A DNA stretch of 64,000 nucleotides, taken from an uncultured Methanotrichaceae archaeon (lineage in GTDB: Archaea > Halobacteriota > Methanosarcinia > Methanotrichales > Methanotrichaceae). The stretch lies in the NCBI GenBank assembly GCA_964639235.1, contig CAZXDN010000006.1:7477-71476 (forward strand), written 5' to 3'. Below, piece by piece: positions 3,689-61,314 of this stretch (the first letter of the stretch is position 1; each line of letters begins with the position of its first letter). The notes under the pieces were generated by a model. The model saw nothing but the letters and a program-made list of their open reading frames with translations. It was not told the origin of the DNA and ran no database searches. A program made the position numbers and the translations under genes.

Positions 3689-3868
3689 AGTCTTGCCTCG
3701 GCAATCCAATCTCAGGTTCTATCTATGTATCCTTTGGGTATGTAGAATATGTAGATATCAAATCTATTCTGATCATCAGGCCATGTTGTGATGATGGCAG
3801 GACTATATTTAAAATATGAGTTGAGCGATAGTACAGCAATTGCTATCTACGTGTGGGAGGGATACGAG

Positions 3869-6800
3869 ATGCACTTGACAACTTCAATAATAAGATTGAT
3901 CCCCATGATGATTCTAGTGTTTTTTCTCATTGCCAGTTCATCTGGGACAGAAGAAAGGACATCTAAGCAGATTTTAATTCTGGCCTCTTATAATCCTGGA
4001 TTGAAATGGACAGATTCCATAGGAAGCGAGATAGAAAACCAGCTGTCCATATACTATCCCACTGCCCAATTTGTTTTTGAGTATATGGATGCCAAAAAGC
4101 AGTCTCCCACTGAAGTTCGGCTTGAAGAGCTAAAGGAGTTATATCAAAATAAGTTTAAGGATCGCCATTTCGATGTCATAATCTCTTCTGACGACGATGC
4201 GTTCCAGTTCTTGCTCGATCGCAGGGACGATCTGTTTCCAGGAGTGCCAGTGGTTTTCTGCGGAGTGAACTTCTTCAAAGACGAGATGCTATCTGGCAAG
4301 AAGGGCTTTACAGGGGTGGTCGAAGCCTTCGATATGCCGGATACCATCTCGCTGATGCTAAAACTGCACCCAAAAACGAGACAAATCGTCATAGTAAACG
4401 ACAGGACAACTACTGGTAAGGCCAACAGGGAAGTCATGAACCAGACGCTTCCCAAATTTGGCAAGAACGCCAGCTTTGCTGTCTGGGATAACATGACTGC
4501 GGAGGAGCTGCAGAGAAATGCTTCTTCTTTACATGAGGGCAGTCTGATCTTTCTCTTGAATTACAATCGTGACAGAGAAGGAAAAGTCCTCACCCATGAA
4601 GAGAGTGCATGGATTCTGAGAAGCGCAAGCTCTGTTCCAATTTACGGCACGCGAGACGTCTACATGGGCTTTGGCGTGCTAGGCGGAGCAATAACCACAG
4701 GGCCAGTCCAGGGAAGCCTGGCAGCAGACCTGGCGCTTCGAATACTGATGGGCGATTCTGCAGATGAGCTCCCTGTAATAAAAACGCCGCCCAACTATTA
4801 CATGTTCGATGTAATTGAGCTGCGCCGCTTTAACATCAGCCTCTCAGATCTTCCTTCTGAGAGCATATTCATCAATCAGCCCTTTGGGGCACAATCAGAT
4901 CTCAGGAATAGGAACTTGAGCCATCTGGATCTGTATGGATATAACCTCAGCCAGTCTAACTTGCACGGGACAAACCTCAGCTTCTCTAATCTAAGCCGTG
5001 CTTCATTGAGGCGGTCTGACCTGTCCAGTGCCAGGCTTGTGAGGGCTAATCTCAGCTATTCGTACATGGCTGATGTCGATTTGCATGGTGCTGACCTTAC
5101 AGAAGCCAATATCAAAAACACAGACCTCGCGAGAGCTGATATGAGGTCGTCGAACATCACCAGGTCAGATCTAAGCGGTGCCTGCCTCGACCAGGCGACG
5201 TTGAGCGAATCAACAATAAGAGAAGCGAACTTGGACAACACCTGTCAAGAAGGAACGAACCTGAGCTCGTGTGATCTGACCAGAGCAAGCCTGAGAAATG
5301 CATTCTTGAACAGGGCCCGGCTCCGGGACTCACTTTTGGTCGGGGCAAATCTGACTAATGCCAGCATGGTGGGAGGAAATATCATCGCCGCAAATCTCAC
5401 CGGTGCGGATTTATCCTGCGCAGATCTCTCAGAAGCTCGCATCTCGCGTGCGAACTTCTATGGCGCCAACCTAAGACGCTCTCGTCTCCTCTTCACGAAC
5501 CTAATCGGAGCTAACCTCAGCCATGCGGACATCTCCTTCTCAAACGTATCGGGCTCAGGCATCATGTTTTCAGACATCTCCCATGCCGATCTCCAGGGCA
5601 CGAGCCTGGTGGCTGTTTGGATGTTCAAGTCCGATCTAGTGGGAGCAAATTTGAGAAAGACCAACCTCAATATGGCTCACTTGAACGATTCCGACCTTTC
5701 AGGGTCCGACCTTAGGGAGGCAGATTTGACCAATGCAGATCTCTCTGGCGCGAACCTTACGGGAGCCGACTTAAGCGACGCCAGGCTGGTGGGAACGGAT
5801 CTAACCCTTGCGATTATAAATGGGGCTACGCTGAGACGGACTAGCTTGGTCGGATCCAAGCTCAACTGGGCAAAGCTGAGTGGAAGCAGCTTCACCGATT
5901 GCCAGTTCGCGAGGGCAGAGCTCTTTGGTGTTAAACTGAGCAACTCTGACCTGAGCGGTTCAGATTTCACCAGAGCGTACCTGACGAGAGCAAACCTTTC
6001 AGGATCCCGAATGAGGAACGCTGTCCTGGACCACACAGATCTCACGAGTGCAAACCTGAGCAGCGCGGATCTGAGCTTCGCCGATCTGGAGAACGTGTAC
6101 CTCAACGACGCTGACCTCTCGTCTGCCAACCTGACGGGGCTGCACATGGAGGCCTTCGACCAGAAGGGCACTGTCTGGAGGAAGGCGAACTTGAGGTCGG
6201 CCACCATGAAGACAGGAACCATCATGAACGAAGATTTCAGCGGTGCCGACCTGAGAAACGCTCATTTTGAGCAGATCTACATGAATGGCGCCAAGTTTAC
6301 TGGCGCAAACCTGAGCGGTGCTGAGTTTAATATGGCTGCCTTCGAGAATATCGACTTTAGCGGCGCAGACCTTCGGGAGGTCAAGTACGACATGGTAGCG
6401 CTCCAGTTCTTTGCCATGTCCAGGCTCGACGGCGCTCAGATGAGCCCAGACCTACGAGAAGACCTCGATCTGCTGCTATCTGCACAGACAAACGCCACTG
6501 AAGGCGGATCTGTTGAAGCAGGACTTGCTATCGGCAACATCAGCGATTCTGGGGCGGTTGAGCCCAAACTGGAGATCAAGTCTGTCGGGGCTGGCACCGA
6601 TGTACGCGGCGCGTCAGTTTTCAACCAATCTGAACTTAATATGGCGCTGCTCGATTTTGGCCCGATAGGCGATCACGGATGGACTTATGAGGCCCATATA
6701 GGTGCTGCCAGGATGGCTGAGGCCCTGCCATATGTCAACCTGACAGAGAGAGAGAACGTCGCAGGTGCCAACGCATCCCAGATCATCAGCGACTACGCAA

Positions 6801-7594
6801 GAGACGGATACGATCTGATATTCTGTCACAGCTATGACTTTGGAGATAATATCAGCGAAGTGGCAGCAAAATATCCCAATACCACCTTCATGTGGGGCGC
6901 AGGCGTAAGAAAGTTGGCGCCCAACGCAGGAACTTATTTTGGCAGAATGTACGAGGTCCAGTACCTTGCAGGAATCGTGGCCGGCGGAATGACCAAGGCT
7001 GACAAGATTGGGTTTAGCGCTGCAGTACCGATTTCTGAAGTTGTGAGGGGCATAGATGCCTTTGCCAGAGGAGTTGCAGTGTCAAATCCCGGAGCCAGGG
7101 TATATGTGGAGTGGATAGGAGGCTGGTATGACCCAGAGAACGAGACTAAGGCGGCTTCAACCCTGATAAGCAAAGGCTGCGACGTCGTGACTCACCATTC
7201 AGACTCCGACAGCACAGGAGCTGTGGCCGAGAATGCCGGTACATACTTCATATCCTTTGGCTCAGACCTGGAGAGCTCCACGTCCCATGTCTTCCTCACA
7301 GGTGCAATATGGAACTGGGAGCCTGTCATGGCCGACGTAGTTGAGGCGGTGCACAATGGGACCTGGGAGTCACAGCCTGGCCAGGACTGGTGGTATGGCC
7401 TGAAGGAGGGTGCTGTAGTGCTGGCGCCTTTGAGCTACCTGGTGCCAGACGATCTAAAAGCGCTGGTTGAAGTGAAAAAGAAGGCCATTGCCAGCGGCGA
7501 GATCGATGTCTTCCCAGGAATGAGCGATGAGGATCTGAGAGAGATCTACTACTTCGAGCCTAATGTGGTGGGAGATCTGCCAAAGAGAAGTTGA
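3869..7594 (+). CDS. Membrane-anchored multidomain protein: N-terminal TM, ABC_sub_bind-like solute-binding domain, about 500 aa of pentapeptide repeats, and a C-terminal BMP-family (PnrA/Med-like) solute-binding domain
   Basis: The ATG at 3869 follows GGGAGGGA. The TM helix is IIRLIPMMILVFFLIASS. KQILILASYNPGLKWTDSI resembles the sensor-type ABC_sub_bind N-terminus. From about nt 4970 to 6470 there is a continuous A(D/N)LxX pentapeptide pattern (ANLSGADLSDARLVGTDL...). The C-terminus (YEVQYLAGIVAGGMTKADKIGFSAAVPISEV...) matches BMP lipoprotein-family motifs. Confidence 0.8.
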   Translation: MHLTTSIIRLIPMMILVFFLIASSSGTEERTSKQILILASYNPGLKWTDSIGSEIENQLSIYYPTAQFVFEYMDAKKQSPTEVRLEELKELYQNKFKDRHFDVIISSDDDAFQFLLDRRDDLFPGVPVVFCGVNFFKDEMLSGKKGFTGVVEAFDMPDTISLMLKLHPKTRQIVIVNDRTTTGKANREVMNQTLPKFGKNASFAVWDNMTAEELQRNASSLHEGSLIFLLNYNRDREGKVLTHEESAWILRSASSVPIYGTRDVYMGFGVLGGAITTGPVQGSLAADLALRILMGDSADELPVIKTPPNYYMFDVIELRRFNISLSDLPSESIFINQPFGAQSDLRNRNLSHLDLYGYNLSQSNLHGTNLSFSNLSRASLRRSDLSSARLVRANLSYSYMADVDLHGADLTEANIKNTDLARADMRSSNITRSDLSGACLDQATLSESTIREANLDNTCQEGTNLSSCDLTRASLRNAFLNRARLRDSLLVGANLTNASMVGGNIIAANLTGADLSCADLSEARISRANFYGANLRRSRLLFTNLIGANLSHADISFSNVSGSGIMFSDISHADLQGTSLVAVWMFKSDLVGANLRKTNLNMAHLNDSDLSGSDLREADLTNADLSGANLTGADLSDARLVGTDLTLAIINGATLRRTSLVGSKLNWAKLSGSSFTDCQFARAELFGVKLSNSDLSGSDFTRAYLTRANLSGSRMRNAVLDHTDLTSANLSSADLSFADLENVYLNDADLSSANLTGLHMEAFDQKGTVWRKANLRSATMKTGTIMNEDFSGADLRNAHFEQIYMNGAKFTGANLSGAEFNMAAFENIDFSGADLREVKYDMVALQFFAMSRLDGAQMSPDLREDLDLLLSAQTNATEGGSVEAGLAIGNISDSGAVEPKLEIKSVGAGTDVRGASVFNQSELNMALLDFGPIGDHGWTYEAHIGAARMAEALPYVNLTERENVAGANASQIISDYARDGYDLIFCHSYDFGDNISEVAAKYPNTTFMWGAGVRKLAPNAGTYFGRMYEVQYLAGIVAGGMTKADKIGFSAAVPISEVVRGIDAFARGVAVSNPGARVYVEWIGGWYDPENETKAASTLISKGCDVVTHHSDSDSTGAVAENAGTYFISFGSDLESSTSHVFLTGAIWNWEPVMADVVEAVHNGTWESQPGQDWWYGLKEGAVVLAPLSYLVPDDLKALVEVKKKAIASGEIDVFPGMSDEDLREIYYFEPNVVGDLPKRS

Positions 7595-13616: not shown

Positions 13617-14549
13617 ATGGGCAGCGAGGATTACTACAGCGCAGTGAGAAGGGCACTTCTCGCCATATTCATAGCAAACGTGGCAGTCGCAGCCCTCAAG
13701 GGAATCTATGGCCTCTACACAGGGTCAATTTCCATGACCACAGACGGTCTCCACTCTTTCTTCGACAGCGCCTCAAACATAATAGGCCTGGTTGGGATCT
13801 ACGTGGCCTCCAGGCCTCCTGACAAGCAGTATCCTTATGGACACGGCAAGTTCGAGACTTTTGCCTCCATAGGAATTGCAGTCCTCCTGTTCACCACCTG
13901 CTTCCAGGTGATCGAGGCCTCAATATCCAGGTTTCTCAACCCTCTGGTGCCAGAGGTCACAAACCTCAGCTTTGCCATAATGCTGGGAACTCTGGCGCTG
14001 AATATCGGCGTCTCTCTGTACGAGTACGCCCTCGGAAAGAAGCTCGGAAGCAGCATACTCGTTGCAGACTCGATGCACACCAGAAGCGACATCTACGCCT
14101 CTTTAGGGGTGATCTTGGGACTGGCAACTGTGCGGCTGGGCTATCCAATTGCCGATCCTCTGATCGCGCTGCTGATCACAGGGATCATAGTGCACACGGG
14201 AGTTGAGATCATCAGGGATAGCTCCAAGGTGCTTCTGGATAAGGCCTTCATAGATGAGGATGTGATAAAGAGGATTGCGGAGTCTGTAGAGGGGGTTTGC
14301 AGCTGCCACAGGATAAGGACTCGCGGGCAGCCTGGCATGATCTACATAGACCTGCACATAGGCGTTGATTCATCTCTCTCCATTGGAAGAGCACACGACA
14401 TCGCCGTGGCCGTAGAGGAGAAGATAGCAATGGCGCTTCCGGGATCTGAAGACGTGGTCGTGCACCTGGAGCCAAGAGATTACTGCGATATCAGGGCGGA
14501 TGGAAGAGACGGGGAGATGGCCGGAAAAGAGAAGGACGGCAAGGCCTGA
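13617..14549 (+). CDS. Cation diffusion facilitator (CDF) family metal efflux transporter
   Basis: It has six TM helices with HSFFDSASN and HTRSDIYAS (HxxxD) metal-site motifs, plus a cytoplasmic C-terminal domain (HRIRTRGQPGMIYIDLHI). Confidence 0.9.
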   Translation: MGSEDYYSAVRRALLAIFIANVAVAALKGIYGLYTGSISMTTDGLHSFFDSASNIIGLVGIYVASRPPDKQYPYGHGKFETFASIGIAVLLFTTCFQVIEASISRFLNPLVPEVTNLSFAIMLGTLALNIGVSLYEYALGKKLGSSILVADSMHTRSDIYASLGVILGLATVRLGYPIADPLIALLITGIIVHTGVEIIRDSSKVLLDKAFIDEDVIKRIAESVEGVCSCHRIRTRGQPGMIYIDLHIGVDSSLSIGRAHDIAVAVEEKIAMALPGSEDVVVHLEPRDYCDIRADGRDGEMAGKEKDGKA

Positions 14550-14695
14550 GGTCGCCTCCTGCGGTGCTGTGCCTTACTGCGCAGTCGTGTCTTGTCGATC
14601 TCTCAGGCGCTTTTGAGCACTGCAGATAAGTTCATACGGTTGTGGGGCAGTTAATATTAAAATCCAAGCTCTGTTGATCTTCAAATGGGGGATAT

Positions 14696-14731
14696 AGGTT
14701 TGCGGGTAGGTTTGCAGGTAGGTTTGCAGGT
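14696..14731. repeat. Three tandem 12-bp direct repeats, AGGTTTGC(G/A)GGT
   Basis: AGGTTTGCGGGT AGGTTTGCAGGT AGGTTTGCAGGT was read directly from the sequence. It ends 79 bp upstream of the CHAT gene start, in the 260-bp intergenic region. Confidence 0.9.
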
Positions 14732-14809
14732 TTTCAAGCATCAAGGATCTGCTCTCGATCGGGTCGGAGTAAGGTTGATGGTTGCAGTCGACTCCTGGAG
14801 GCATTTCAA

Positions 14810-17800
14810 TTGAGCGCTGAGAAGACAGTTCTTCTCCAGGTGATGGGCTCAGGCACTCCTTCTGTGCGCACTTTCTCATTCTCGGTCTATGTTGATGGCG
14901 AGGCAGTCGTCTCCGATCAGTCTCTTACGCCTGTTGAGTCTCAGGAGGTGAGGGAGATCTCAGGCCAGTACGAGATGCTCTTTGGCAAAGAGTGCGAGCC
15001 CAGTGCAGCAAAAGGCTACGTCGGCATCCTCGGTCCAAGCCTCTTCCAGCTCTGGTTTGGCGCCTCCTGGTCCAGCATCAGGGCAAGGCTCGGAGGGTCG
15101 GTCATGAAGCTCGTGGTCTCTTCTGACGCTCCTGAGGTTCTGAGCCTTCCCTGGGAGCTGCTGCGCCCCGGTGAAGAGATCTTCCTGGGGATGCAGCCCG
15201 GCTCAAGTATTGTCCGCAGACCTGGGATTGGGGACCTGAAGCCTCCTTTGGAAGACCCACCCAAAGGCCCTCTGAGGGTGCTTTTCATGGCATGTGGCCC
15301 AAGGCAGTCTCTGGATTACGTGGCTGAAGAGGAAGGCCTCATCAGGTCAGCCTCCGGGCTGGACGTCGCACTGGACTTCGCAGACCTTGGCACGTTTGAG
15401 GAGCTGAGGGCAAGGGTAGACCAGTTCAGGCCTCAGGTTGTCCATCTTGCAGGCCAGGCGTCTGCAAAGGAGGGGTCTTACTGCTTCGCTTTCGAGGGCA
15501 AAGGCGGCATTCCAGACGTCAGATCCGCTTCAGAGGTCGCCCAGGCGCTTGAGGGCAAGAAAGTACAGTGCATCGTGCTCACAGGCTGCCAGAGCAGTCA
15601 TTCAGCTGCAGAAGGCCTCTGCCACGACCTGGCAAGGTCGTCTCTGCCAATGGCCATCTGCTGGCCGGTCTCAATGACGGACGATGCAGGCAAAGAGGCG
15701 ATCAGGGCGTTTTACAGCTCTCTTCCTGCTGGAATTGGCACTGCATTATCCAGGTCCAGAGCGGTCATAGGCAGAGGCCTGGAGGCTTCAGACCTGCTTC
15801 TGGCCTTTCCAGCGCTGTATTCTTCAAGCGATGCTGAGGTGGTCTTTGGAGATGAGATTGAGGCTCACAGGCCTCTGGTTGAAGAACAGGAGCCGCTGCC
15901 GGGAACGGCTGAGGGCTATGCCAGGGACTTCGTTGGCAGGAGGAGGGATCTCCAGAAGCTCATGCCCGTTTTGAGGGACGGCTCAGTCAGGGCTCTGGTA
16001 ATTACTGGTCCTTCTGGCGCTGGAAAGAGCGCCCTGGCTACAAAGCTGGCGCGGGGATTGGAGGCTGAAGGATTCTTTTTAATTCCAATATACAGCTCAG
16101 AGAACAATTTCTTGATCCCTGCCAGGGTCATGGATGCCTGCAGCAGGGCATTTCTGAAGGCTGCTCTCAAGGCAGAAAGCGAGGGCAAACCGGATCAGGC
16201 AGGCCTCTTCAGGTCTGCGTCGCAGGCGCTCTCTAACCCCAGGCTTTCCTCTGACGACAAGCTAGGACGCATGATATCAGCCCTGAACAACGGCAAGTTC
16301 GCGCTTGTGCTCGACCGATTTGACCTGAACTTAGGTCCGGATGGCAAGATCCTGGACAGAGGAGTCTCTGAGATATACCTTCGCCTCATGCGCCTGCTCA
16401 CCAGCTCCAGGGCTGTCTTCACGTCAGAGCGCCTGCCAGAAGATCTGATGACTCTGCCCTCTAGGGCCTGGGAGTATTCGCTTGGCCCTCTGTCTTTGCC
16501 CGACTTCAACAGGTTCCTCACAAGAGCATCAACAGCAGAGAGGCGCTCATCTGGGGTCGAATACGAGCGCGTCAAAGCTGTCTACAGCTCTCTTGAGGGG
16601 TATCCCGCCTGCCTGGATTTAGTTGCGCGTGCCATAAGCCACGGCTTGAGCGCTGAGGCAGAGAAAGGCGTTGGATGCGACGGCTTTGCATCTCTGCTCT
16701 ATAGTTCTCTTCCCAAGATCTCACAGGGCGCTATCTCCAGGATCGCGGTATACGAGGTTCCTTTGAGCCAGGATGCAGTATCTGCTGTTGTTGGAAGGCC
16801 AGGAGACGGCCTTCTGAGCATGATAGAGGCCTGGAAGAGCCGCGGACTCGTCTTTGGCCTGGGATCAGAGCTTATGGCGCTCGACTCGCACAAGCGAAGC
16901 TGGCTCTTAAGCCGCCTGGAGAAAGACCAGATAGCTGTGGCCCAGAGGGACGCAGGCGACTTCCTGAGAGCCCTGGCTGAGCAGAGGCGTTCGAGAGAGC
17001 TGGGGTTATCAAGGCTCGAATGCATGCTTGAGGCCAGGGGGCACTACCTGGCGTCAGGCGACGTCGAGAGGGCGAGAGACGCCACGAGCAGGATAAGCGG
17101 CTTCCTCATGGGCAGAGGGATGTACTACGATGTGAGAAGGCTAAACGAGGGCCTTCTTCCCCTGGGGACAAGTCCATCGACTTTGAGCTGGATGGCGCAG
17201 GCGTGCGCCGCTCAGGGCGATTATGCAGAGGCAGAGAAGCTGTATCAGAGATGCCTGGAGGCATCAGCCGATGACAGGAATGCTGCGAACTCCTGGCATG
17301 GCCTGGCATCAATTGACCTGCACTTCGGCAGGTACGAGGCTGCCAGGGCAAACTTCCAGAAGGCAATGGAGATTTACAGGCAAATTGGCGACCGCCTGGG
17401 CGAAGCCGCATCCCTGCACGGAGTAGCGTCTATAGAGATGGCTCTAGGCGAGAACGACACTGCAAGATCTGATCTGGAGAGGGTGCTTGAGCTGCAGGAG
17501 GCGCTGGGAGACATCTCAGGTCAGGCGTCCACTCTGCACGACCTCATAGCCCTGGACCTGAGGGTTCCAAACTACAAGGCTGCGAGGGCGAAGCTTGAAA
17601 GGTCAGTACAGCTGCTTCGCCAGATAGGAGACTCATCAGGAGAGGCCGCAGCCGTCCATAACATGGCGTCCATCGACATGGAGATAGGGGAGCTGGATAG
17701 TGCCAGGGATGAGTTCCAGAGGGCTCTCTCGATAAGGCAGCTCCTGGGGGACAGGGCTGGCGAAGCCTCAGCTCTACAGGGCCTGGCATCAGCAGAGATA

Positions 17801-18151
17801 GAGAAAGGAAACAGCGATGCTGCCCGCGATGCTTTCAGAAATGCTCTGGAAATCTTCCAGGAGATAGGGGACAAATCCGGCGAGGCATCCTCTTTCTTCC
17901 AGCTGGGGATCATGGCGTCTCTCCAGGGAAAGGTCAAGGAGGGCTTGAGCCTTATAGCCTTGAGCGGGATCATCCTCAGGACTGCTGGAAGCCCTGAGTT
18001 CGAGCAGGTCGAGCCTGTTGTTGAGCGCCTGGCCTCGCAGCTGAAGTACAGCCAGGAGCAGTTCATGCAGATGATAAGGCAGGTCACTGGCGCGTATAAG
18101 AGGGATAAGGGCAAAAACCTTTTAGAGCTGGCCTTCAGAAAGGCTAGGTGA
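14810..18151 (+). CDS. CHAT (caspase-like) peptidase domain fused to a STAND-type P-loop NTPase and a C-terminal TPR array
   Basis: The TTG start lies 8 nt after GGAGG. The CHAT region spans about aa 100-335, with His in QVVHLAGQ (H212, nt 15443) and Cys in CIVLTGCQS (C260, nt 15587). Walker A is VITGPSGAGKS (K406, nt 16007-16030) and Walker B is FALVLDRFD (nt 16301-16324). There are at least six 40-aa TPR-like repeats with a recurring IGDxxGEA...H/Q.xASI pattern (aa about 800-1040). Confidence 0.85.
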   Translation: MSAEKTVLLQVMGSGTPSVRTFSFSVYVDGEAVVSDQSLTPVESQEVREISGQYEMLFGKECEPSAAKGYVGILGPSLFQLWFGASWSSIRARLGGSVMKLVVSSDAPEVLSLPWELLRPGEEIFLGMQPGSSIVRRPGIGDLKPPLEDPPKGPLRVLFMACGPRQSLDYVAEEEGLIRSASGLDVALDFADLGTFEELRARVDQFRPQVVHLAGQASAKEGSYCFAFEGKGGIPDVRSASEVAQALEGKKVQCIVLTGCQSSHSAAEGLCHDLARSSLPMAICWPVSMTDDAGKEAIRAFYSSLPAGIGTALSRSRAVIGRGLEASDLLLAFPALYSSSDAEVVFGDEIEAHRPLVEEQEPLPGTAEGYARDFVGRRRDLQKLMPVLRDGSVRALVITGPSGAGKSALATKLARGLEAEGFFLIPIYSSENNFLIPARVMDACSRAFLKAALKAESEGKPDQAGLFRSASQALSNPRLSSDDKLGRMISALNNGKFALVLDRFDLNLGPDGKILDRGVSEIYLRLMRLLTSSRAVFTSERLPEDLMTLPSRAWEYSLGPLSLPDFNRFLTRASTAERRSSGVEYERVKAVYSSLEGYPACLDLVARAISHGLSAEAEKGVGCDGFASLLYSSLPKISQGAISRIAVYEVPLSQDAVSAVVGRPGDGLLSMIEAWKSRGLVFGLGSELMALDSHKRSWLLSRLEKDQIAVAQRDAGDFLRALAEQRRSRELGLSRLECMLEARGHYLASGDVERARDATSRISGFLMGRGMYYDVRRLNEGLLPLGTSPSTLSWMAQACAAQGDYAEAEKLYQRCLEASADDRNAANSWHGLASIDLHFGRYEAARANFQKAMEIYRQIGDRLGEAASLHGVASIEMALGENDTARSDLERVLELQEALGDISGQASTLHDLIALDLRVPNYKAARAKLERSVQLLRQIGDSSGEAAAVHNMASIDMEIGELDSARDEFQRALSIRQLLGDRAGEASALQGLASAEIEKGNSDAARDAFRNALEIFQEIGDKSGEASSFFQLGIMASLQGKVKEGLSLIALSGIILRTAGSPEFEQVEPVVERLASQLKYSQEQFMQMIRQVTGAYKRDKGKNLLELAFRKAR

Positions 18152-18248: not shown

Positions 18249-18596
18249 GTGCCTGGTTCAAACGTCGAGAGCGAGTTATCGAGCGCTGCCCAAACGGGAT
18301 CAGCGCCAATTCTGGTGGAGCTGGTGCCCAGGTCCGGGTCTGTGCAGGCGAGCGTTTCAGCGCTTTCCAAGGAGAATGCCGGCGTAGAGTCAGTAGAGGC
18401 CATGAGCAGCGCCATGAGCCTGATCCAGTCAATGGCTCAGTGCCTCATAGCAGCCATTGGCGATGGCGCTGGAAGCCTTGGCCCTTCCGGAGCTGAGATC
18501 GATTTTGGGATCAGGTTCGATGCCGATGGCGAGGCCTTCCTTGCCAGGTCCGGGCCTGAGGCTGCCTTAGGGGTGAAGCTGATCTGGATACGCTGA
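18249..18596 (+). CDS. Small protein resembling the Trypco2 / CU044_2847 family (trypsin-co-occurring domain 2)
   Basis: The GTG start follows GGGGGA. The product is 115 aa. An N-terminal ILVELVP...G strand, a central helical segment (VEAMSSAMSLIQSMAQCLIAAIG) and the C-terminal AEIDFGIRFDADGEAFLARSGPEAALGVKLIW match my recollection of the family pattern (evEFGlkl.aeaGavia+.g.ea.f+V.L.W). It lies 97 bp downstream of the CHAT gene on the same strand. Confidence 0.55.
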   Translation: MPGSNVESELSSAAQTGSAPILVELVPRSGSVQASVSALSKENAGVESVEAMSSAMSLIQSMAQCLIAAIGDGAGSLGPSGAEIDFGIRFDADGEAFLARSGPEAALGVKLIWIR

Positions 18597-18728: not shown

Positions 18729-20129
18729 ATGACTCTCATGTACTTCAGCACAAACGGCCACCCGGAGCACGTGGACTTTAAAAAGGCGCTTCTGGTAGGC
18801 CAGGCGCCGGACAAGGGGCTCTACATGCCAGAGAAGATTCCAGCAATCCCCAGAGATGAAATCATCGATTTCTCAGGCAAGAGCTATCCAGAGGTCGCCT
18901 ACAGGGTTCTCCTCCCTTATCTTCAGGGATTGGTTCCAGAGGACCGGTTAAGAGCAATCCTCAAGGACGCCTACAGCTACGACCTGCCAGTGGAGACTGT
19001 CTTTCCGGGCAAGTACGTAATGAGGCTCGATCGCGGCCCCACATGCTCGTTTAAAGACTTCGCAGCCAGGCTCATGGGCAGGCTGATCCAGTATTTTCTG
19101 AGCCTTGAGGGAAAGAGGATAGTCATCTTGACTGCAACCTCAGGAGACACGGGGTCCGCTGTGGCCCAGGCATTCTATGGCCTTGAGGGGATAGATGTCG
19201 TTGTCCTCTTCCCGAGAGACGAGGTGACCGAGAGGCAGCGCAGGCAGATGACCACACTTGGCAGGAACGTCTCAGCCGTAGCAGTCGACGGCAAGTTCGA
19301 CGACTGCCAGGCGCTAGTCAAGCAGGCATTCGCTGATGGAGAGCTAAAAGGTCTCAACCTCTCTTCAGCGAACTCGATCAACGTGGGACGGCTCCTGCCT
19401 CAGGCGGTGTACTACTTCTACGCCTACTCCAGGGCTGCAAAAGACGGCCAGGAGGCGGTATTCTCGGTTCCCAGCGGCAACTTCGGAGACCTGATGGGAG
19501 GGCTCATAGCCATGAAGATGGGGCTTCCAGTGAGGAAGTTCGTGGCTGCCACAAACGAGAACGACGAGTTCCCTGAGTTCATGAAGACAGGAGTCTACAG
19601 GCCCATACGTCCCAGCAGGAACTGCATCTCCAACGCCATGAACGTGGGCCATCCCTCGAACCTGGCAAGGGTTTTCTCCCTTTACGGTGGCGAGATGGAC
19701 GAGACAGGAATAGTGCACAAGATGCCAGACCTGGAGGAGATGAGAAAGAACCTCTTTGCAGTCTCGATCTCAGATGAGGAGACACGGCAGACCATAAAGG
19801 ACGCTTATGCCAGTTATGGAGTCGTGCTCGAGCCCCACGGCGCTGTGGGGTGGGCTGGGCTTCTTCACTACTTGAGGGAGGTCGAAGACTGGTCGCCCTG
19901 CATCTCTCTTGAGACTGCAGACCCAGCCAAGTTCCCAGATGAGATCATACGGCTGATAGGCATAGAGCCCAAGGTCCCTGAGGCCATGTCTTGCTTAGAC
20001 GAGCTTGAGGAGAAGTTCGAGAGGATGGACAACAGCTATAATGGGTTAAAATCGCTCCTGCTGGGTTTATTTGGGGAGTCTTCGAGAGATGGCGATAGAG
20101 CAGGGGATAAGGCAGCTGTGCGTACTTAA
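18729..20129 (+). CDS. thrC: Threonine synthase
   Basis: The PLP-lysine motif CSFKDFAARL and the SSGNFG-like SGNFGD motif are present. The length is 466 aa. Confidence 0.9.
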   Translation: MTLMYFSTNGHPEHVDFKKALLVGQAPDKGLYMPEKIPAIPRDEIIDFSGKSYPEVAYRVLLPYLQGLVPEDRLRAILKDAYSYDLPVETVFPGKYVMRLDRGPTCSFKDFAARLMGRLIQYFLSLEGKRIVILTATSGDTGSAVAQAFYGLEGIDVVVLFPRDEVTERQRRQMTTLGRNVSAVAVDGKFDDCQALVKQAFADGELKGLNLSSANSINVGRLLPQAVYYFYAYSRAAKDGQEAVFSVPSGNFGDLMGGLIAMKMGLPVRKFVAATNENDEFPEFMKTGVYRPIRPSRNCISNAMNVGHPSNLARVFSLYGGEMDETGIVHKMPDLEEMRKNLFAVSISDEETRQTIKDAYASYGVVLEPHGAVGWAGLLHYLREVEDWSPCISLETADPAKFPDEIIRLIGIEPKVPEAMSCLDELEEKFERMDNSYNGLKSLLLGLFGESSRDGDRAGDKAAVRT

Positions 20130-48785: not shown

Positions 48786-51473
48786 CTACAGCAGCTCCAG
48801 GCTCCACTTGTTGAACTTGCCCACATCCTGTCCTGCCAGGTCTGCGACCTTCAGAGTCCAGTTGCCCTTCATCTCCTGGCCGAGCATTCCGGAGAGCGCC
48901 GGGCTGGACGAGTCGTAGGTGGCGATCAGGTTGTCCCTGTCCTCGCCTTCTCTGTTGTGGAGGACAGCCTTCTTTCCTGAGGGCGATAGGAGTTCCAGCC
49001 TCAGGTCGCCTATGTAGGTGTGGGTGATGTCGACTCCTATCTTGATTCCCTGTGTCGTGCCAGGCTGATCTATGGAGATCGTGCTGTTCACGCCTCCAGG
49101 CTCGTTGTCCGGAATGTCGAGCCCCGGCTCAGTCTCGGCTTTGACAGGGCTTTGAGTTCCAGCTCCTGTGGTGCCTGCCAGCTCTATGTCCAGGCCCCAG
49201 TGGCGAAGCGTCCCCAAATCGCGCTTGGCAAGGTCTACGACGCTTAAGGTCCAGTTGCCTTTGGACTTCGAGCCCACAAGGTTTGCCAGGGCCTGGTTCT
49301 CCCTGCTTGAGTATGTCGCGTCTAGGTCTACAGTCCTGGCCCGGTTTCTGTCGTGGAGCATCACGGCATCTCCCTCAGGGCTGACCAGCTTTACCTGCAG
49401 GTCTCCGATGTAGGTGTGATCTATCTTCACTGCCACTTCTATCTGAGCCACCTTCCCATCCTGGGGCACGTTGATGATGCTGGTTATGCCTGTGGGCTGG
49501 TTGTCTGGCACTGCAAGGTTTGGATCTGCCTCGAAGTGCAGCATCTCTCCTGGATGCGTCGTCTGCTCTGGCACTTTGAAGCTCGGCACTATGCCTGAGA
49601 GGCTCGCCCCGTTGGACCTGGCCTCAGTTCCCACCCCGAACTTGGCAAACGCTGCCCAGATACCGGCATTTGCCCTGTCATAGGCCTCCTGGCTTAGAGG
49701 CTTGTTAACCGATGTCAGCATGTCGCCTGCAGCTCTGAGGATTGCGTCTCTGGCGTCTATGAAGCTGGGGTTTGCTGGAGTCAGCTTGAGGGCGTCCACG
49801 ACCAGCTGCAAAGAGAGTTCCTTTCCCACCTTCCTGTTCATCTCCATGAGAATGGCGCACCATATCTCCCCTATGTTGTGCTCCTCATCATATCTCCCAG
49901 TTCCTATGTTTCCGAAGTTGTCTGGGAAGTTGGAGTCGTAGTGGAACTCTCTTATGCCGTCTGGATTGTTGACCACCCAGTCGCCCACAACCTCTGTGTT
50001 GTTGATCGTGCACGCCACGTAGTCGCTCCAGCCCTCGCCCATTCCTGAGCTCTGGGGAGCGTCCAGGGCGGCGTCGTTCATGGGACCGCCCACAAGCCTG
50101 TTCGTCAGGCCGTGAGTGTACTCGTGAAATACCACGCTTGAGTCCATTGCAGTGTGCCTGTTGGTGCTGGTGACCAGCCCCATGTTCATCACAGGCCCGT
50201 GTCCGTCTACGGGCGTTCCCATGTTCGCAGTGCCTGAGACTGCTCCTGAGTGGGCCCTGGCATCCACCCTGTCGCCCTGGAGGCCTCCTCTTCCGAAGTT
50301 CTCCTGCTGGAAGTTGCCGTCCTTCTCCCTGAAGCCGAGGAGGTAGAGGAAGTCGTGCATGAAGTTGCAGTAGTAGAATATGTTCAGAACCTTCTGGTAG
50401 TCTCCATTCGGATCCGGGTTGTCAAAGACCGGGCTTCCGCTGGAGTTTACTGCCTTTACCGTGGGACCATTGACTCCCAGGTGTGCGTAAACGTTGGTTC
50501 CTTCTGTGCTGTCTGCTAAGACCCAATCCGCGGGAAACGAAGGCGTGCCAGACGGAAGTGGCTCTCTGGGATCTGGAATCCCATAGCTCTCCATTGCCAG
50601 AGGAAAGTCAACGACGTCTCTTGGCACAGCGCCGTCCTTTCTAAACACGCTTCCCTTGATCCTGATGGAGCTGATGAGCTGATGAGAGTAGAGTATCTCG
50701 CCGGTCTCTGCATCTACCATGACCCTGTACTGGCCCTCGTAGTTGGGCATCGTCAGGATCACCTCCCAGGCGAGCCTCAGCTCGTCGCCCAGGGGAAACC
50801 AGATGAGGTTGGCCTTTATGCTGTCTCCAAACGGGCCCTTCTCAAGCACAGTTGGCTGTTCAGGAGTGTTCGTGAACATTGCAGTCACATGAGGCTCAAA
50901 TCCAGTTAAGTCGACTGCTGTGAAGTACGTGGGCTCGCCGAACTGGTCTTTTTTGCCCTGCTCGTCTTCGCTTGGGACCGCCACGTGATCTGCTGCCTTT
51001 AAGACTGCCTCCTCGACTCTGAGCTTAGGAGCCACTGGCAGGTCCTCTGGAACTGATACTGTGTTTCCAACGGACTCTGTCAAAGTCCCGTCAGGCGAGA
51101 AGCGCACAGTCTCTGCAGCCTGGAAGACCTTGATTCCCTTGTATGTCTGCTGCAGGTTGACTGCTGCAGCTCCAGTGGATGTCTCCTGGACATGAGGGTC
51201 TGGCATGAACTCAGCAGGCTGGGACTCGGACAGGCCCCTCACCCTTCCAGTGCTCTGGGCATAGTCCAGTGCCCTTTGGACGTAGTTCCCCCTCTCTGTC
51301 CTGGTTGAATCAGACCTGATCACAGATGGGTTGCCTGTGACAGGATCAAATCTCTCTATCCTCACGTTCTGGTCGTCAAAGGAGGCCTCCAATGCGAGAG
51401 ACTTAAGCTCGTTCCTCCTTGTGGCGTTTTCTCTGTTAACGCTAAAATCTCTAACGTCTACTTCTCTGCTCAT
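48786..51473 (-). CDS. M36 (fungalysin-type) zinc metalloprotease with an FTP/PepSY-like propeptide region and two C-terminal proprotein-convertase P-domains
   Basis: HEYTH lies at nt 50112-50126 (VVFHEYTHGLTNRL), followed by GMGEGWSDY. The N-terminus has NLQQTYKGIKVFQA (FTP-like). There are two C-terminal repeats, ...HTYIGDLQVKLVSPEGD...GNWTLSVVD and ...HTYIGDLRLELLSPSGK...GNWTLKVAD. A GGAGGG SD is present. There is no hydrophobic signal peptide. Confidence 0.85.
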   Translation of the reverse strand: MSREVDVRDFSVNRENATRRNELKSLALEASFDDQNVRIERFDPVTGNPSVIRSDSTRTERGNYVQRALDYAQSTGRVRGLSESQPAEFMPDPHVQETSTGAAAVNLQQTYKGIKVFQAAETVRFSPDGTLTESVGNTVSVPEDLPVAPKLRVEEAVLKAADHVAVPSEDEQGKKDQFGEPTYFTAVDLTGFEPHVTAMFTNTPEQPTVLEKGPFGDSIKANLIWFPLGDELRLAWEVILTMPNYEGQYRVMVDAETGEILYSHQLISSIRIKGSVFRKDGAVPRDVVDFPLAMESYGIPDPREPLPSGTPSFPADWVLADSTEGTNVYAHLGVNGPTVKAVNSSGSPVFDNPDPNGDYQKVLNIFYYCNFMHDFLYLLGFREKDGNFQQENFGRGGLQGDRVDARAHSGAVSGTANMGTPVDGHGPVMNMGLVTSTNRHTAMDSSVVFHEYTHGLTNRLVGGPMNDAALDAPQSSGMGEGWSDYVACTINNTEVVGDWVVNNPDGIREFHYDSNFPDNFGNIGTGRYDEEHNIGEIWCAILMEMNRKVGKELSLQLVVDALKLTPANPSFIDARDAILRAAGDMLTSVNKPLSQEAYDRANAGIWAAFAKFGVGTEARSNGASLSGIVPSFKVPEQTTHPGEMLHFEADPNLAVPDNQPTGITSIINVPQDGKVAQIEVAVKIDHTYIGDLQVKLVSPEGDAVMLHDRNRARTVDLDATYSSRENQALANLVGSKSKGNWTLSVVDLAKRDLGTLRHWGLDIELAGTTGAGTQSPVKAETEPGLDIPDNEPGGVNSTISIDQPGTTQGIKIGVDITHTYIGDLRLELLSPSGKKAVLHNREGEDRDNLIATYDSSSPALSGMLGQEMKGNWTLKVADLAGQDVGKFNKWSLELL

Positions 51474-56760: not shown

Positions 56761-59700
56761 CTACGCCTCTTCTGCGTCAGACAGCCTGACCTCTTCACGG
56801 CGCTGGAACTTGAGAAGCGTTTCAGTTAGCTCCTCCATCTGCACTGGCTTGGAGATGTAGTCGTCCATTCCAGCTTTAAGGCACATCTCCTTGTCGCCTT
56901 CAAGCGCGTGAGCTGTGACTGCTACTATCTTGAGGTCGCTGTCTGGCCACCGCCTGTGTATCTCTTTTGCAGCTTCTAGGCCGTCCATCTCAGGCATCTG
57001 CACGTCCATCAGTATCACGTCATAGTCCTGGCGCTCCAGAGATTCCAAAACCTCCAGGCCGTTTCCTGCAACGTCAGCGCGATAGCCCAGCCTCCTTAAC
57101 ATCCTCAATGTCACCATCTGGTTGACGGCATTGTCTTCTGCCAGGAGTATCCTCATGTTCGCGCGGGCTTGCGGCCTGGAAGGAGGCTTGTGCTCTGCAG
57201 GGCTTTTAGGGGCGGCCCTGTCGAAGATCCCAATTAAGGCCTCATGAACCTGTGAGGGCTTCACAGGCACTGAGATCTGGCCGCTGAACAGGTCTGAGCG
57301 CTGGTGGTGGGCCTTGGACGAGAGGAGCACGAGCGGCAGCTCTTTCTGGCACCTGCGAATCTCCTCTGCCAGAAGATGGCAGTCTTTGAGCTTCCTGTCG
57401 ATCACTGCTAGGTCGAACTTCTCTGCATGGGCCAGGTTTATGGCCATCTCTACGGTGCTGGCGGCCACAGGCGACATGGACCAGATCGAGGCATACCTGC
57501 ACAGGATATTGCGGGTGGTCTCGCTCTCTGCTGCGATCATCAGCTTTTTTCCCTTGAGTATAGGCTGATCGGCGCTCAGGTATGATTTGGGCTTTCCCAA
57601 AGACGGCTGTGCCTTGATGGTGAAGTGAAATTCAGACCCGCTTCCCAGCTCAGACTCGACCCAGATCTTTCCTCCCATCAGCTCGACCAGATTCTTGCTT
57701 ATTGCCAGGCCAAGGCCTGTGCCTCCGTACTTGCGGGTGGTGGACGTGTCAACCTGGGAAAACGACAGGAATAGCTTTCCCTGGGCCTCTTCAGGTATGC
57801 CAATTCCTGTATCCTTCACGATAAAGTGTATCTCTCCTCTCTCAAAGGCATTGCAGTCGACTCTCGCAGTGACCTCTCCGCTGCTTGTGAACTTGACAGC
57901 GTTTCCGAGCAGGTTTGCGAGGATCTGGCGCAGCCTAGTCGGGTCTCCAACTATCTGCTCAGGCACCCCTTCATCCATCATGTACGCCAGGTTCAGGTCC
58001 TTTTCTGTTGCTTGAGACGCCACCAGGTCAAGCGAGTCCTCCAGGCAGGCTCGCAAATCAAACGGCTGGCACTCCAGCTCCATCTTCTCGCCCTCTATCT
58101 TGGATAAGTCGAGTATGTCGTTTATTATGGCAAGAAGCGCGTTTCCGCTGTTTCTTATGGTCTCCAGACACTCCCTCTGATCGGGAGTCATGTCCTCTTC
58201 GAGGAGAAGCCCTGTCATGCCGATCACTGCGTTCATGGGTGTCCGAATCTCGTGGCTCATGTTGGCCAGGAACTCGGATTTAGCCCTGGATGCCTCCAGT
58301 GCATGATCCTTTGCTTTTTTCAGCTCCCTTTCCACAAGCTCTCTTTCTTCCATCTCTTCGTGGAGCGCCTCGTTAGCTCTGAGGAGCCAGGCAGTCCTCT
58401 CGCGCACCCTGGTCTCAAGCTCGTCGTGAGCTCTCCTAAGCTCTTCTTCAGCCTGCCTCTTCTCTGTGATGTCCCTTCCAACTGACTGTATCTCTATCAT
58501 GTCTCCGCTGCCATTGAAGATGCCCCTGTCAGTCCACTGCTGCCAGCGCACTCCCATTGGAGAAAGGACGCGGTGCTGGTAAGATACGAACGGATTTTCA
58601 GGGCTTAAAGATGAAGTGCTCTTTTCCAGTATCTCCCTGTCCTCCTCTGGTATCAGAGGCATGAAGCTCTTGCCAAAAAGGTCCTCTTTGGATCTGCCGA
58701 AGTACCGTGCGTAAGCCTCGTTCACGAAAGTTATCGTTCCGTCAGGCAGATAGCGGCAGATGAGCTCTGTCTGATCCTCGACTATCGCCCTGTAGCGCTC
58801 CTCGCTCCTTGAGAGATTGGCCTGGACGCTCTCCAGGGTTGAGAGCATCTCGTTTATCGATCCCGCCAGGCTTGCCAGCTCGTCTTCTCCTGGGACGGGA
58901 ACCCTGGTCGAAAGGTCGCTTCTGGTGCGGATGTTCCTCACGCTTGCGCTTAAAACTGCCAGGCCTGAGAGCACCGATTTGTCCAGGTAAAGCAGTGTCA
59001 GAGCTATGAAGATGAAGCCTGCAGCTGCAAAGAGGAGAACAATGTAGAGCATGCTGCTCTCGCTTTGCATGTATATGTCTCTCGGGTTCTCGATGCGAAG
59101 CATCACTATCGGGTCGCCGTAGATGTCTTTTAAGAGCGCATAGCCTGCAATGTAGCTGTTGTTGATCTCTCTTATGAATATGGGCGATGCGTCAGAGAGG
59201 TGCAGCTCAGCCTGGCTGAAGTCCTCAGGCACATCCTCATCGTTTAGATCGTGCGCAGTCAGGTTCAGGTGCGTGACCTTGGCCAGTTTGCGGATCTCAT
59301 GGGAGTTGAGATACCTGCCCATGACCAGCCTTCCCCTGGATGGCCCCTCTCTGTTTCCCTTGAGTATGGGGTGGGAGACTATGAGCATCGGCCCGTCCGG
59401 CAGGAGTATCAGCCCTGCGTAGTGCCTCTGCTTATCCAGGCAGCCTGGGCAAAAGCCATATAGCGAGAGCCTCTCTCTCAGAGCCTCAGGGACCTTCACC
59501 TCTTCTTCTCTCTGGATGTCGAAGGCCTTTGCGTAGACAATCCTTCCATAAGAGTTCATGAAGACCACGAGGTTAATCTCCAGCTCTTTGAAAGTCCCGT
59601 CTCCCAGGTTCGATTCCATATAGCCGGAGTTCTGGTCAGACACGAACGAGTAGGTGTCGTTTCTGACTGCCCAGTAAGCTGTGGTGTTTGACAGCCTCAT

Positions 59701-59877
59701 CTGATCTATCGAGATCGCATCAAGGGCACGTTCGACGTTCTCTCTCATGTCCCTGTTCTCGATCTCTCTCAAGCTCTTTGTGAGGACCATCTGAGATGAA
59801 GCGTACAGTACCAGAATCAGGCAGACGAGACCTGCTCCAATGATGATGAGAGTCTTCTTGCGCAAGTTCACTTTCAT
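56761..59877 (-). CDS. Hybrid sensor histidine kinase: TM, CHASE4-like, TM, HAMP, PAS, HisKA, HATPase, degenerate receiver and receiver
   Basis: The Met at 59877 is used ([25 protein letters not shown]). [12 protein letters not shown] is a CHASE4-like motif. The PAS region has [17 protein letters not shown]. The H-box is [25 protein letters not shown] and [11 protein letters not shown] are present. The C-terminal receiver has ILLAEDN...[12 protein letters not shown]...K. Confidence 0.9.
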
Positions 59878-60148
59878 GTCTCGCCTCTCTGGCCTGTCCA
59901 CCGCTTGCCTGCTGCCTCCAATGCGGAGCCTCAGGTCTGGAGATATGCAGACGATGCTTGCAGGCAAGTCGCCTTTTGGCCTCAGATCTCTTGTCCTGGA
60001 CTATTTAACTGTACTCCTCTCATCTATAAGAATAGCACGGAGATGCCATACTGTATCATTTTGAATTACTCAGTGTCATAAAATTTATGCAAAATACGGG
60101 CTGAACTCGGCCGAGACCTCATCTTATATTATTTTTGCAATTAGATCT

Positions 60149-61139: not shown

Positions 61140-61314
61140 CGAGCTATCATCCTCGTATCGGTGATTGTCGGACCCATTTTTGAACTTGTTGGGCGATTTT
61201 ATGAAATTGTCGACAGACGGGGTCTGGAGAACTTTTATTTCTTCATCCATGTCAGTATATAAAAAGAACGTAAGTTATTTATCTATTCAGAGGCAACCTA
61301 AGAAGGGGAGTACA

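Follow-up and report, generated by a model that had tools for sequence, protein, structure and literature searches.

The question raised by this locus is whether an archaeal protein built like a bacterial immune sensor is still a killing device or has been turned to another use. The locus lies in a 64,000-nucleotide (nt) stretch of contig CAZXDN010000006.1 from an uncultured Methanotrichaceae archaeon, which we call the window and to which all coordinates refer; features are on the forward strand unless stated otherwise. The gene (14810-18151) is an uninterrupted open reading frame (ORF) of 1113 amino acids (aa) with a TTG start, described here from the ORF list, Pfam and AlphaFold2 models. 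It encodes an N-terminal beta/alpha module, a CHAT-fold domain predicted to be a pseudo-protease, a STAND nucleoside triphosphatase (NTPase), a TPR array and a C-terminal helical cap. Our reading, to which we give a probability of roughly 0.55, is that the protein is a domesticated descendant of a bacterial-type CHAT-STAND-TPR conflict system, probably with the small protein Pepco as its partner, and that it has kept the nucleotide switch while its caspase-like domain has become a pseudo-protease. A preliminary description, made from the sequence by eye, had proposed the CHAT, STAND and TPR modules, and Pfam, the structure models and Foldseek bear them out.

The CHAT/caspase-fold domain covers aa ~95-340 (15092-15829), as placed by Pfam, a profile match to the structure 8tl0, the N-terminal model and Foldseek. 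When the whole protein was scanned, CHAT was not among the best 25 of 31 Pfam families; scanning residues 1-370 alone recovered CHAT (PF12770) on aa 87-317 with E = 1.8e-12 and 47.7 bits against a cut-off of 24. Similarly, a search of the PDB with the N-terminal region as a single sequence gave nothing meaningful, and a profile of 11 sequences (alignment A6) was needed to reach one solved structure, 8tl0 (SAVED-CHAT), at E = 2.9e-9. The AlphaFold2 model of this region is confident (predicted local distance difference test, pLDDT, 88.1; predicted template modelling score, pTM, 0.88). Its Foldseek matches are SAVED-CHAT, the TPR-CHAT protein of Craspase, separase, DdvA, MALT1, CED-3 and caspases. 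Both the profile match and the caspase/CHAT fold thus place the domain in the CHAT family. Profile searches, which the preliminary description had proposed together with structure prediction for fixing the domain borders, also put AAA_16 on aa 374-514 and TPR_12 on four stretches.

The state of the catalytic dyad is decisive for the function of such a domain. The 8tl0 structure is an activated SAVED-CHAT filament with a published dyad of H375 and C422, 47 residues apart, which correspond to H355 and C402 in the numbering of the chain. The profile alignment sets V-V-H212-L-A-G-Q216-A of the window protein over I-L-H351-F-I-G-H355-G of 8tl0, and G259-C260 over A401-C402. Since only H355 and C402 have the spacing of 47 residues, the catalytic His is that of the "GHG" and not the equivalent of H212. 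His212 (15443-15445) is therefore the conserved non-catalytic His of the hHhxGHG motif (ILHFIGHG in 8tl0), and the position of the catalytic His is occupied by Gln216 (15455-15457). Cys260 (15587-15589), which comes after strand 254-258 in the structure model, stands at the position of the catalytic Cys. The distant Pfam-CHAT proteins with a residue aligned at position 216 all have G-H-[GA] there, as VHFDGHG, FHLTGHA or FHLVGHA. The preliminary description had taken H212 and C260 as the two retained halves of the dyad; only Cys260 proves to be kept. Of the residues expected in an active clan CD peptidase, the window protein thus has the Cys and lacks the His in G-H-G, and we know of no clan CD peptidase that works without its catalytic His.

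This loss is a property of the whole family. His is absent from position 216 in all 51 Methanotrichaceae orthologues; Gln is found there most often, and otherwise L, P, T, E or R. Of the 51, 17 retain Cys260, and the other 34 have R, G, L, P, Q, W, K or E in its place. The domain itself has not eroded, as its mean identity of 0.44-0.54 is like that of the other domains and reaches 0.54 inside the clade that lacks the Cys. Conservation of CHAT even without the Cys, together with retention of the P-loop, argues for a selected pseudoenzyme domain and not for decay. A caspase fold, a substituted dyad and retention across the lineage are what characterize a pseudo-caspase, and all three are found here. 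On this sequence evidence the CHAT domain is a pseudo-protease in which Gln216 replaces the canonical catalytic His, and it is not predicted to be a working effector.

The switch behind it presents a different picture. The STAND nucleotide-binding domain (aa 371-560; 15920-16489) includes the lead-in FVGRRRDL and is matched by Pfam AAA_16 on aa 374-514 at E = 4.6e-11, with nSTAND1, nSTAND3 and NACHT as weak matches. Walker A (GPSGAGKS; 16007-16030, with K406 at 16025-16027) and Walker B (FALVLD; 16298-16315, ending in D502) are present, as the preliminary description had noted, and are conserved in homologues. The alignments of protein homologues show no variation at G400, G405 or K406 and at least 90% conservation of D502; the residue following D502 is Arg and not acidic. 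Across the orthologues, the Walker A Lys is retained in 49 of 51. There follow a helical/winged-helix STAND arm (aa 561-780; 16490-17149), all-helical with a small beta-hairpin in the model and covered by the alignment to 6mfv_A, and the TPR array (aa 781-1060; 17150-17989). Walker A and Walker B, followed by a helical/winged-helix arm and then a repeat sensor, are what is expected of a STAND protein.

The array is matched by TPR_12 in four stretches (E = 1.6e-33). The motif GDxxG[EQ]A occurs five times in exact 40-residue steps, at aa 860, 900, 940, 980 and 1020. In the model it consists of one 34-residue TPR and then six 40-residue helix pairs, in line with the six or more 40-residue repeats counted earlier by eye, and Foldseek matches it to the TPR domains of LGN/Pins. 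The C-terminal helical cap (aa 1061-1113 and stop; 17990-18151) is the best-conserved part of the protein, with a mean pairwise identity of 0.57-0.78 against 0.38-0.63 for the other domains. For the full-length AlphaFold2 model (pLDDT 89.5, pTM 0.78), the top Foldseek match is the STAND-TPR protein 6mfv_A over residues ~370-1080 (712 columns, template modelling score 0.75, target-normalised). MalT, Avs3, CED-4 and Apaf-1 are further matches, the one to Avs3 (8dgc) having a query-normalised score of just 0.14. PADLOC found generic TPR models and no Avs model in the 1113-aa protein, NCBIfam gave it no specific equivalog assignment, and neither Pfam nor NCBIfam detected a DNA-binding or metal-binding domain in it. 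It has no transmembrane segment, as had been noted before (the highest Kyte-Doolittle 19-mer scores 1.21).

Where the gene is found, and how it has travelled, speaks to its use. A genome scan in which each species was represented by one genome gave 72 loci, of which almost all are in Methanotrichaceae (Methanothrix/Methanosaeta) metagenome-assembled genomes (MAGs). The gene immediately before the orthologue encodes the same cation diffusion facilitator (CDF) transporter in 38 genomes if only full-length CDF matches are counted; with shorter or partial matches the number rises to about 50. Across the 38 genomes, the gap that separates the orthologue from the end of CDF has a median of 20 nt; it is at most 60 nt in 29 of them, and in four the two genes overlap by 4 nt. 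Pairwise identities of the two proteins in these 38 genomes are closely correlated (Pearson 0.94, Spearman 0.88), with mean identities of 72% for CDF and 52% for the CHAT-STAND protein, so that the CHAT-STAND gene evolves faster than its neighbour. The conserved synteny and the co-divergence indicate that the CHAT-STAND gene is vertically inherited and fixed in place. The downstream side of the orthologue loci is variable.

In the window, the CDF gene (13617-14549; Pfam Cation_efflux, E = 7.7e-45, and ZT_dimer) precedes the CHAT-STAND gene, and thrC, encoding threonine synthase (18729-20129; Thr_synth_N and PALP), lies beyond it. The preliminary description had named both flanks correctly but had called them unrelated housekeeping genes, which does not suit the CDF gene, a conserved and usually operon-like neighbour in relatives. 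The block at 14.6-18.7 kb was also considered as a variable defence island and rejected: CDF synteny is conserved, and only the small Pepco gene downstream is variably present. The fixed position after CDF and the housekeeping context in the window are not those of an Avs-type variable island, and the housekeeping-like phyletic pattern is the one that the preliminary description had itself held to speak against its proposal.

In a tree rooted with distant CHAT-STAND proteins, bacterial sequences with the full dyad are sister to the whole archaeal clade. The rooted tree suggests one change from His to Gln at the archaeal base and several independent losses of Cys. Uninterrupted frames of at least 1000 residues are found in about 50 of 70 loci; seven loci are frameshifted (L014, L034, L045, L060, L061, L064 and L065). 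Three observations on individual contigs may be added here. On a contig of 20,862 bp in the 90% cluster of the window protein, the gene is in pieces of 228, 259 and 603 aa (P0254-P0256). This split gene and an in-frame stop in one archaeal Pepco copy (L084) are signs of ongoing decay in some populations, or possibly sequencing error. One contig binned as Gemmatimonadales (L065, 7592-7792) carries an orthologue with a CDF fragment of Methanotrichaceae type (69% identity) and is probably mis-binned.

The small gene that follows bears on the ancestry of the system. The ORF at 18249-18596, which the preliminary description had left unidentified, encodes a Trypco1/Pepco protein of 115 aa with a GTG start and GGGGGA 4 nt upstream. 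It lies 97 nt downstream of the CHAT-STAND gene and matches Pfam Trypco1 (E = 3.9e-11) and the NCBIfam CU044_2847 family (E = 5.7e-08). Trypco1 and Trypco2 were defined as small proteins co-occurring with peptidases of NTP-dependent conflict systems (Kaur et al. 2020, PMC7159879), and have been renamed Pepco (Evans et al. 2025, bioRxiv 10.1101/2025.11.14.688446). According to the latter work, a Streptomyces Pepco (SsPepco) forms stable 9-10-mer beta-barrels and is a protease-activated pore toxin, which becomes toxic once the trypsin-like domain of an Avs4 cuts a C-terminal tail of ~2 kDa (about 20 aa) after Ile97. Pepco is found there with both serine and cysteine proteases, and archaea are not mentioned.

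The archaeal protein departs from this scheme in its C-terminus. Like its closest relative (P0104), the window Pepco opens with MPxSN and closes with KLIWIR; just 2 residues follow the conserved Trp of the family. Tails of at most 2 aa occur in 13 of 144 relatives, the median being 7 aa. Activation by removal of a tail therefore cannot apply literally to the window Pepco. It has neither a cleavable C-terminal tail nor a partner protease predicted to be catalytically competent. It ends in Ile-Arg, and SsPepco is cut between I97 and R98, a coincidence on which we put no interpretation. The ratio of nonsynonymous to synonymous substitution (dN/dS) is 0.22-0.24 against the two nearest orthologues and 0.22-0.5 among archaeal orthologues. 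Judged from these ratios, the window Pepco is under purifying selection.

Pepco is much less common in the family than the CHAT-STAND protein. At 90% identity the CHAT-STAND protein falls into 63 clusters, against 10 of archaeal-type Pepco in a census made by exhaustive profile search and a five-sequence profile (a single-sequence, word-indexed search with Pepco had given only two clusters). An iterative search of six-frame ORFs found Pepco within 8 kb in only 2 of the 72 related loci besides the window. The archaeal gene is always directly upstream of thrC (L006, L073 and L077-L084), and the window arrangement, with Pepco adjacent to the peptidase-domain gene, recurs in L006, L082, L083 and L084. 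Cys260 is kept in every Pepco-bearing lineage with a readable CHAT domain (the window and L006), and also in P0003 and P0002, the likely Pepco partners on separate contigs. All such lineages fall in one part of the tree, so this co-occurrence is not independent evidence. On the contigs of another Pepco (P0105; L077-L079, 8001-8345), the 8 kb upstream of Pepco contain no CHAT-STAND gene. The genes upstream of it (VapBC, DUF6159) overlap those downstream of the CHAT-STAND gene of P0003 (L075, 859-4221), so that the CHAT-STAND gene and Pepco have probably been separated by an insertion of at least about 10 kb. This inserted block would also carry an M23 peptidase, an amine oxidase and a glyoxalase. 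The interrupted copy in L084 lies at 1259-1600.

Bacterial Pepco relatives stand in other surroundings. A more distant one (P0295, L091) precedes the gene of a Trypsin_2-TPR protein of 1025 aa, with HNH, Mrr and PemK genes around them, which is the canonical defence-island arrangement. Some of the closest bacterial Pepco relatives (L088/L089, 60-398; L090, 7001-7348) lie beside short TPR-only genes of 328-587 aa; one of these closest relatives is named as an Anaerolineae MAG, and L090 has a 1.6-kb uncalled gap. These TPR-only genes may be remnants of a degraded protease-STAND-TPR partner.

The closest comparison for the CHAT-STAND protein itself is with bacterial full-length homologues (P0035, P0039, P0045-48 and P0061, from, for example, Acetobacteraceae and Acidobacteriaceae MAGs). 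They have the same architecture over the whole length, including the N-terminal module and the C-terminal cap, at 34-39% identity. They keep the dyad as VVHLSGHG ... SGC[EQ], where the window protein has Gln216, and they lie outside the archaeal clade in unrelated, non-conserved contexts. No CDF, Pepco or other effector partner was found near the bacterial full-dyad homologues. Small co-directional ORFs without a Pfam match lie directly upstream in 2 of the 3 such contexts that were looked at (257 and 187 aa at 6384-7713 of L076; 136 and 246 aa at 4533-5683 of L086), and could be partner genes.

Several known systems resemble the locus in part. Like the protease-STAND (Avs-type) modules with Pepco (PMC7159879; bioRxiv 10.1101/2025.11.14.688446), the window has a fusion of peptidase fold, STAND and repeat sensor with an adjacent Trypco1-family gene of ~115 aa on the same strand. 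It differs from them in having Gln216 for His, a Pepco that is downstream instead of upstream and lacks a tail, an archaeal host, a fixed syntenic locus in place of a defence island such as that of L091, and no Avs match in PADLOC. The best profile and fold matches are SAVED-CHAT (8tl0) and TPR-CHAT/Csx29 of Craspase, in which the hHhxG[H]G and GC motifs are co-positioned with those of the window protein. However, these are active, with the His and Cys of the dyad ~4 Å apart, and are triggered by cyclic triadenylate (cA3) or target RNA and not by a fused STAND domain. The pseudo-orthocaspases of cyanobacteria (PMC6426788) are alike in their caspase fold, substituted dyad and conservation in the lineage, which imply a non-proteolytic role, but they are p20 orthocaspases and not CHAT proteins, have both dyad residues replaced (Tyr, Ser) and have no STAND-TPR fusion. 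STAND proteins of the 6mfv/MalT type share the AAA_16-type NTPase and an FVGRxxEL-like lead-in; the 6mfv match covers NTPase and TPR only, and the CHAT-fold domain of the window protein has no counterpart there. MalT itself activates transcription and has a DNA-binding domain. The papers that our literature search turned up describe no experimental work on an archaeal CHAT-STAND protein, so that the same statement in the preliminary description stands uncontradicted.

Taken as a domesticated conflict system, the locus would have the following history. An ancestor of Methanotrichaceae would have acquired a bacterial-type CHAT-STAND-TPR module, probably with Pepco, beside the CDF gene and thrC. 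The module would then have become fixed, the general base would have been lost once, and Cys and Pepco would have been lost repeatedly, with the NTPase switch and the TPR arm retained throughout. In the present protein, a ligand bound on the TPR arm would lead to nucleotide exchange and to oligomerisation via the NTPase domain. The CHAT-like domains clustered in this way would most likely serve for binding or as an adaptor, with no or at best weak catalytic activity, and would not be an executioner protease. In the lineage of the window, Cys260 and the selected Pepco may form a residual output, with Pepco gated by binding or by non-canonical cleavage.

Some of the observations fit this reading poorly and have to be set against it. 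The 17 lineages that keep Cys260 are only ~44% identical in the CHAT domain, and retention across such divergence points to some function that still depends on the Cys. Gln216, too, is conserved, and a non-canonical mechanism may be possible. The selection on Pepco and its adjacency are easier to explain if Pepco is still cleaved. Moreover, the catalytic status of the domain is read from sequence and model, and the presence of Pepco elsewhere in genomes without a copy within 8-10 kb was judged indirectly, by cluster counts.

These points lead to the possibility, which we consider unlikely, that the window carries an active abortive-infection system. In this case, the TPR array would sense a viral protein, STAND would oligomerise, and CHAT, using Cys260 with an unconventional base, would cleave Pepco and so open a lethal membrane pore. 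The domain logic is the same as that of bacterial protease-Avs systems with Pepco that have been shown to work, although the catalytic His is absent from the window protein and all 51 orthologues, and PADLOC recognizes no Avs protein. A Pepco gene under purifying selection follows on the same strand, but it has no C-terminal tail to be removed, and most orthologues have no Pepco within 8 kb. Cys260 is present in every Pepco-bearing lineage that is readable or has a known likely partner; across the family, however, recurrent losses of the Cys have left the rest of the gene in place. Finally, the protein evolves faster than its neighbours (52% against 72% mean identity), which counts for this reading; that its gene is fixed and syntenic, outside variable islands, counts against it. 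The preliminary description had placed the protein among sensor-effectors of the conflict type with NLR/Avs-type logic. The order of CHAT, STAND and TPR is correct and the adjacent Pepco strengthens the ancestry; a working caspase-like effector is the part that does not survive.

Exaptation may instead have gone to completion, the protein now being a housekeeping signalling or scaffold ATPase linked to the CDF metal exporter or to filament or sheath biology, with Pepco as a left-over. We regard this too as improbable. The short gaps to CDF and the several 4-nt overlaps suggest co-transcription, and the two proteins co-diverge. In the window, though, 260 nt with an AT-rich element and a repeat separate the two genes, which makes co-transcription with CDF doubtful there, and bacterial homologues are not adjacent to CDF. 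The decay of the protease dyad beside a kept P-loop and the uniform conservation of the domains, the C-terminal cap most of all, speak for this reading, and the failure to find a DNA-binding or metal-binding domain speaks against it. When insertions separate the two genes, Pepco stays with thrC and not with the CHAT-STAND gene, which is in its favour; elsewhere, however, the Pepco family is found with proteases. Precedents for caspase folds outside defence exist in the cyanobacterial pseudo-orthocaspases and in HetF, a CHAT protein that acts in the Anabaena divisome (PMC8406250).

A related and more speculative view, which we likewise hold to be improbable, is that the pseudo-caspase STAND protein, fixed throughout the history of this family of filamentous, sheathed methanogens and usually co-transcribed with CDF, has a non-immune and lineage-essential signalling role, and that Pepco is an ancestral death output still used in some lineages. 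Such a role might lie in the control of cell fate or filament integrity, or in metal-stress signalling. If this is so, cell-death machinery would have been domesticated in archaea in a way comparable to that seen in multicellular eukaryotes.

That the gene is a pseudogene in the making without selected function is very improbable and was rejected, since the degenerate dyad, the seven frameshifted loci, the three-piece gene in the 90% cluster of the window protein and the stop in the L084 Pepco are outweighed by intact ORFs in the window and in most loci, by the uniform conservation of all domains (44-78% identity) with G400, G405 and K406 invariant, and by confident structure models.

The N-terminus and the upstream region of the gene require some comment. 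Public gene calls contain an identical protein that starts at Met12 and has 1102 aa. Residues 1-11 of the 1113-aa protein are conserved in its closest homologue (P0002), residues 4-14 form a confident beta-strand in both the full-length and the N-terminal models, and a Shine-Dalgarno-like GGAGG (14797-14801), already seen in the preliminary description, lies 8 nt 5' of the TTG. Together these support the TTG start at 14810, and the annotated N-terminus of the public gene calls (window 14810-14842) is probably 11 residues too short. The 260-nt spacer between CDF and the CHAT-STAND gene is unusually long compared with the 60 nt or less in most relatives. It contains an AT-rich element, TTAATATTAAAAT, at ~14651-14663 and a 12-bp tandem repeat, TAGGTTTGCAGG, at 14695-14731 (3.1 copies, Tandem Repeats Finder score 67, 96% matches), which confirms the earlier remark on a repeat-bearing upstream region.

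The remainder of the window is ordinary chromosome, with genes for DNA ligase, histidinol dehydrogenase, cobyrinate amidase, a TFX regulator and a UPF0047 protein, and an Rfam scan of it returned zero RNA families. Proteins neighbouring the gene are 58-78% identical to proteins of Methanotrichaceae MAGs. Four other genes in the window may be mentioned. A 1268-aa ORF (3788-7594) combines pentapeptide repeats (Pfam Pentapeptide, E = 8e-91, 12 stretches) with a C-terminal Bmp/PnrA-like domain, and this fusion to a substrate-binding domain is an unusual architecture. A predicted M36 fungalysin-type metallopeptidase with two proprotein-convertase P-domains is encoded at 48786-51473 (reverse strand), and a hybrid sensor kinase of ~1067 aa with CHASE4, HAMP, PAS, HisKA, HATPase and receiver domains at 56761-59967 (reverse strand). 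A predicted papain-family C1 peptidase with DUF4114 repeats is encoded at 61165-63288.

The domain order described here is already catalogued in bacteria, where the logic of Pepco and protease has been tested experimentally. What is new is that the protease domain is predicted to be a pseudo-protease across the entire archaeal family, that the locus is fixed and usually operon-like with the CDF gene, that Pepco extends to Archaea in a tail-less form, and that there is a graded series of loss, from the full dyad in bacteria to the single loss of His and then to the repeated losses of Cys and Pepco. The series, with NTPase and TPR under selection, offers a clean case for the domestication of immune or cell-death modules into pseudoenzymes, and the tail-less Pepco raises the question of how it is kept inactive. 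The first His of hHhxGHG is easily mis-assigned as catalytic, and the same error can be made in other CHAT proteins. Both the pattern of domestication and the archaeal Pepco are unexpected and can be tested. Methanothrix, which forms sheathed filaments, is an acetoclastic methanogen of global importance, and an NLR-like gene present throughout its family provides a concrete target for the study of Methanothrix biology.

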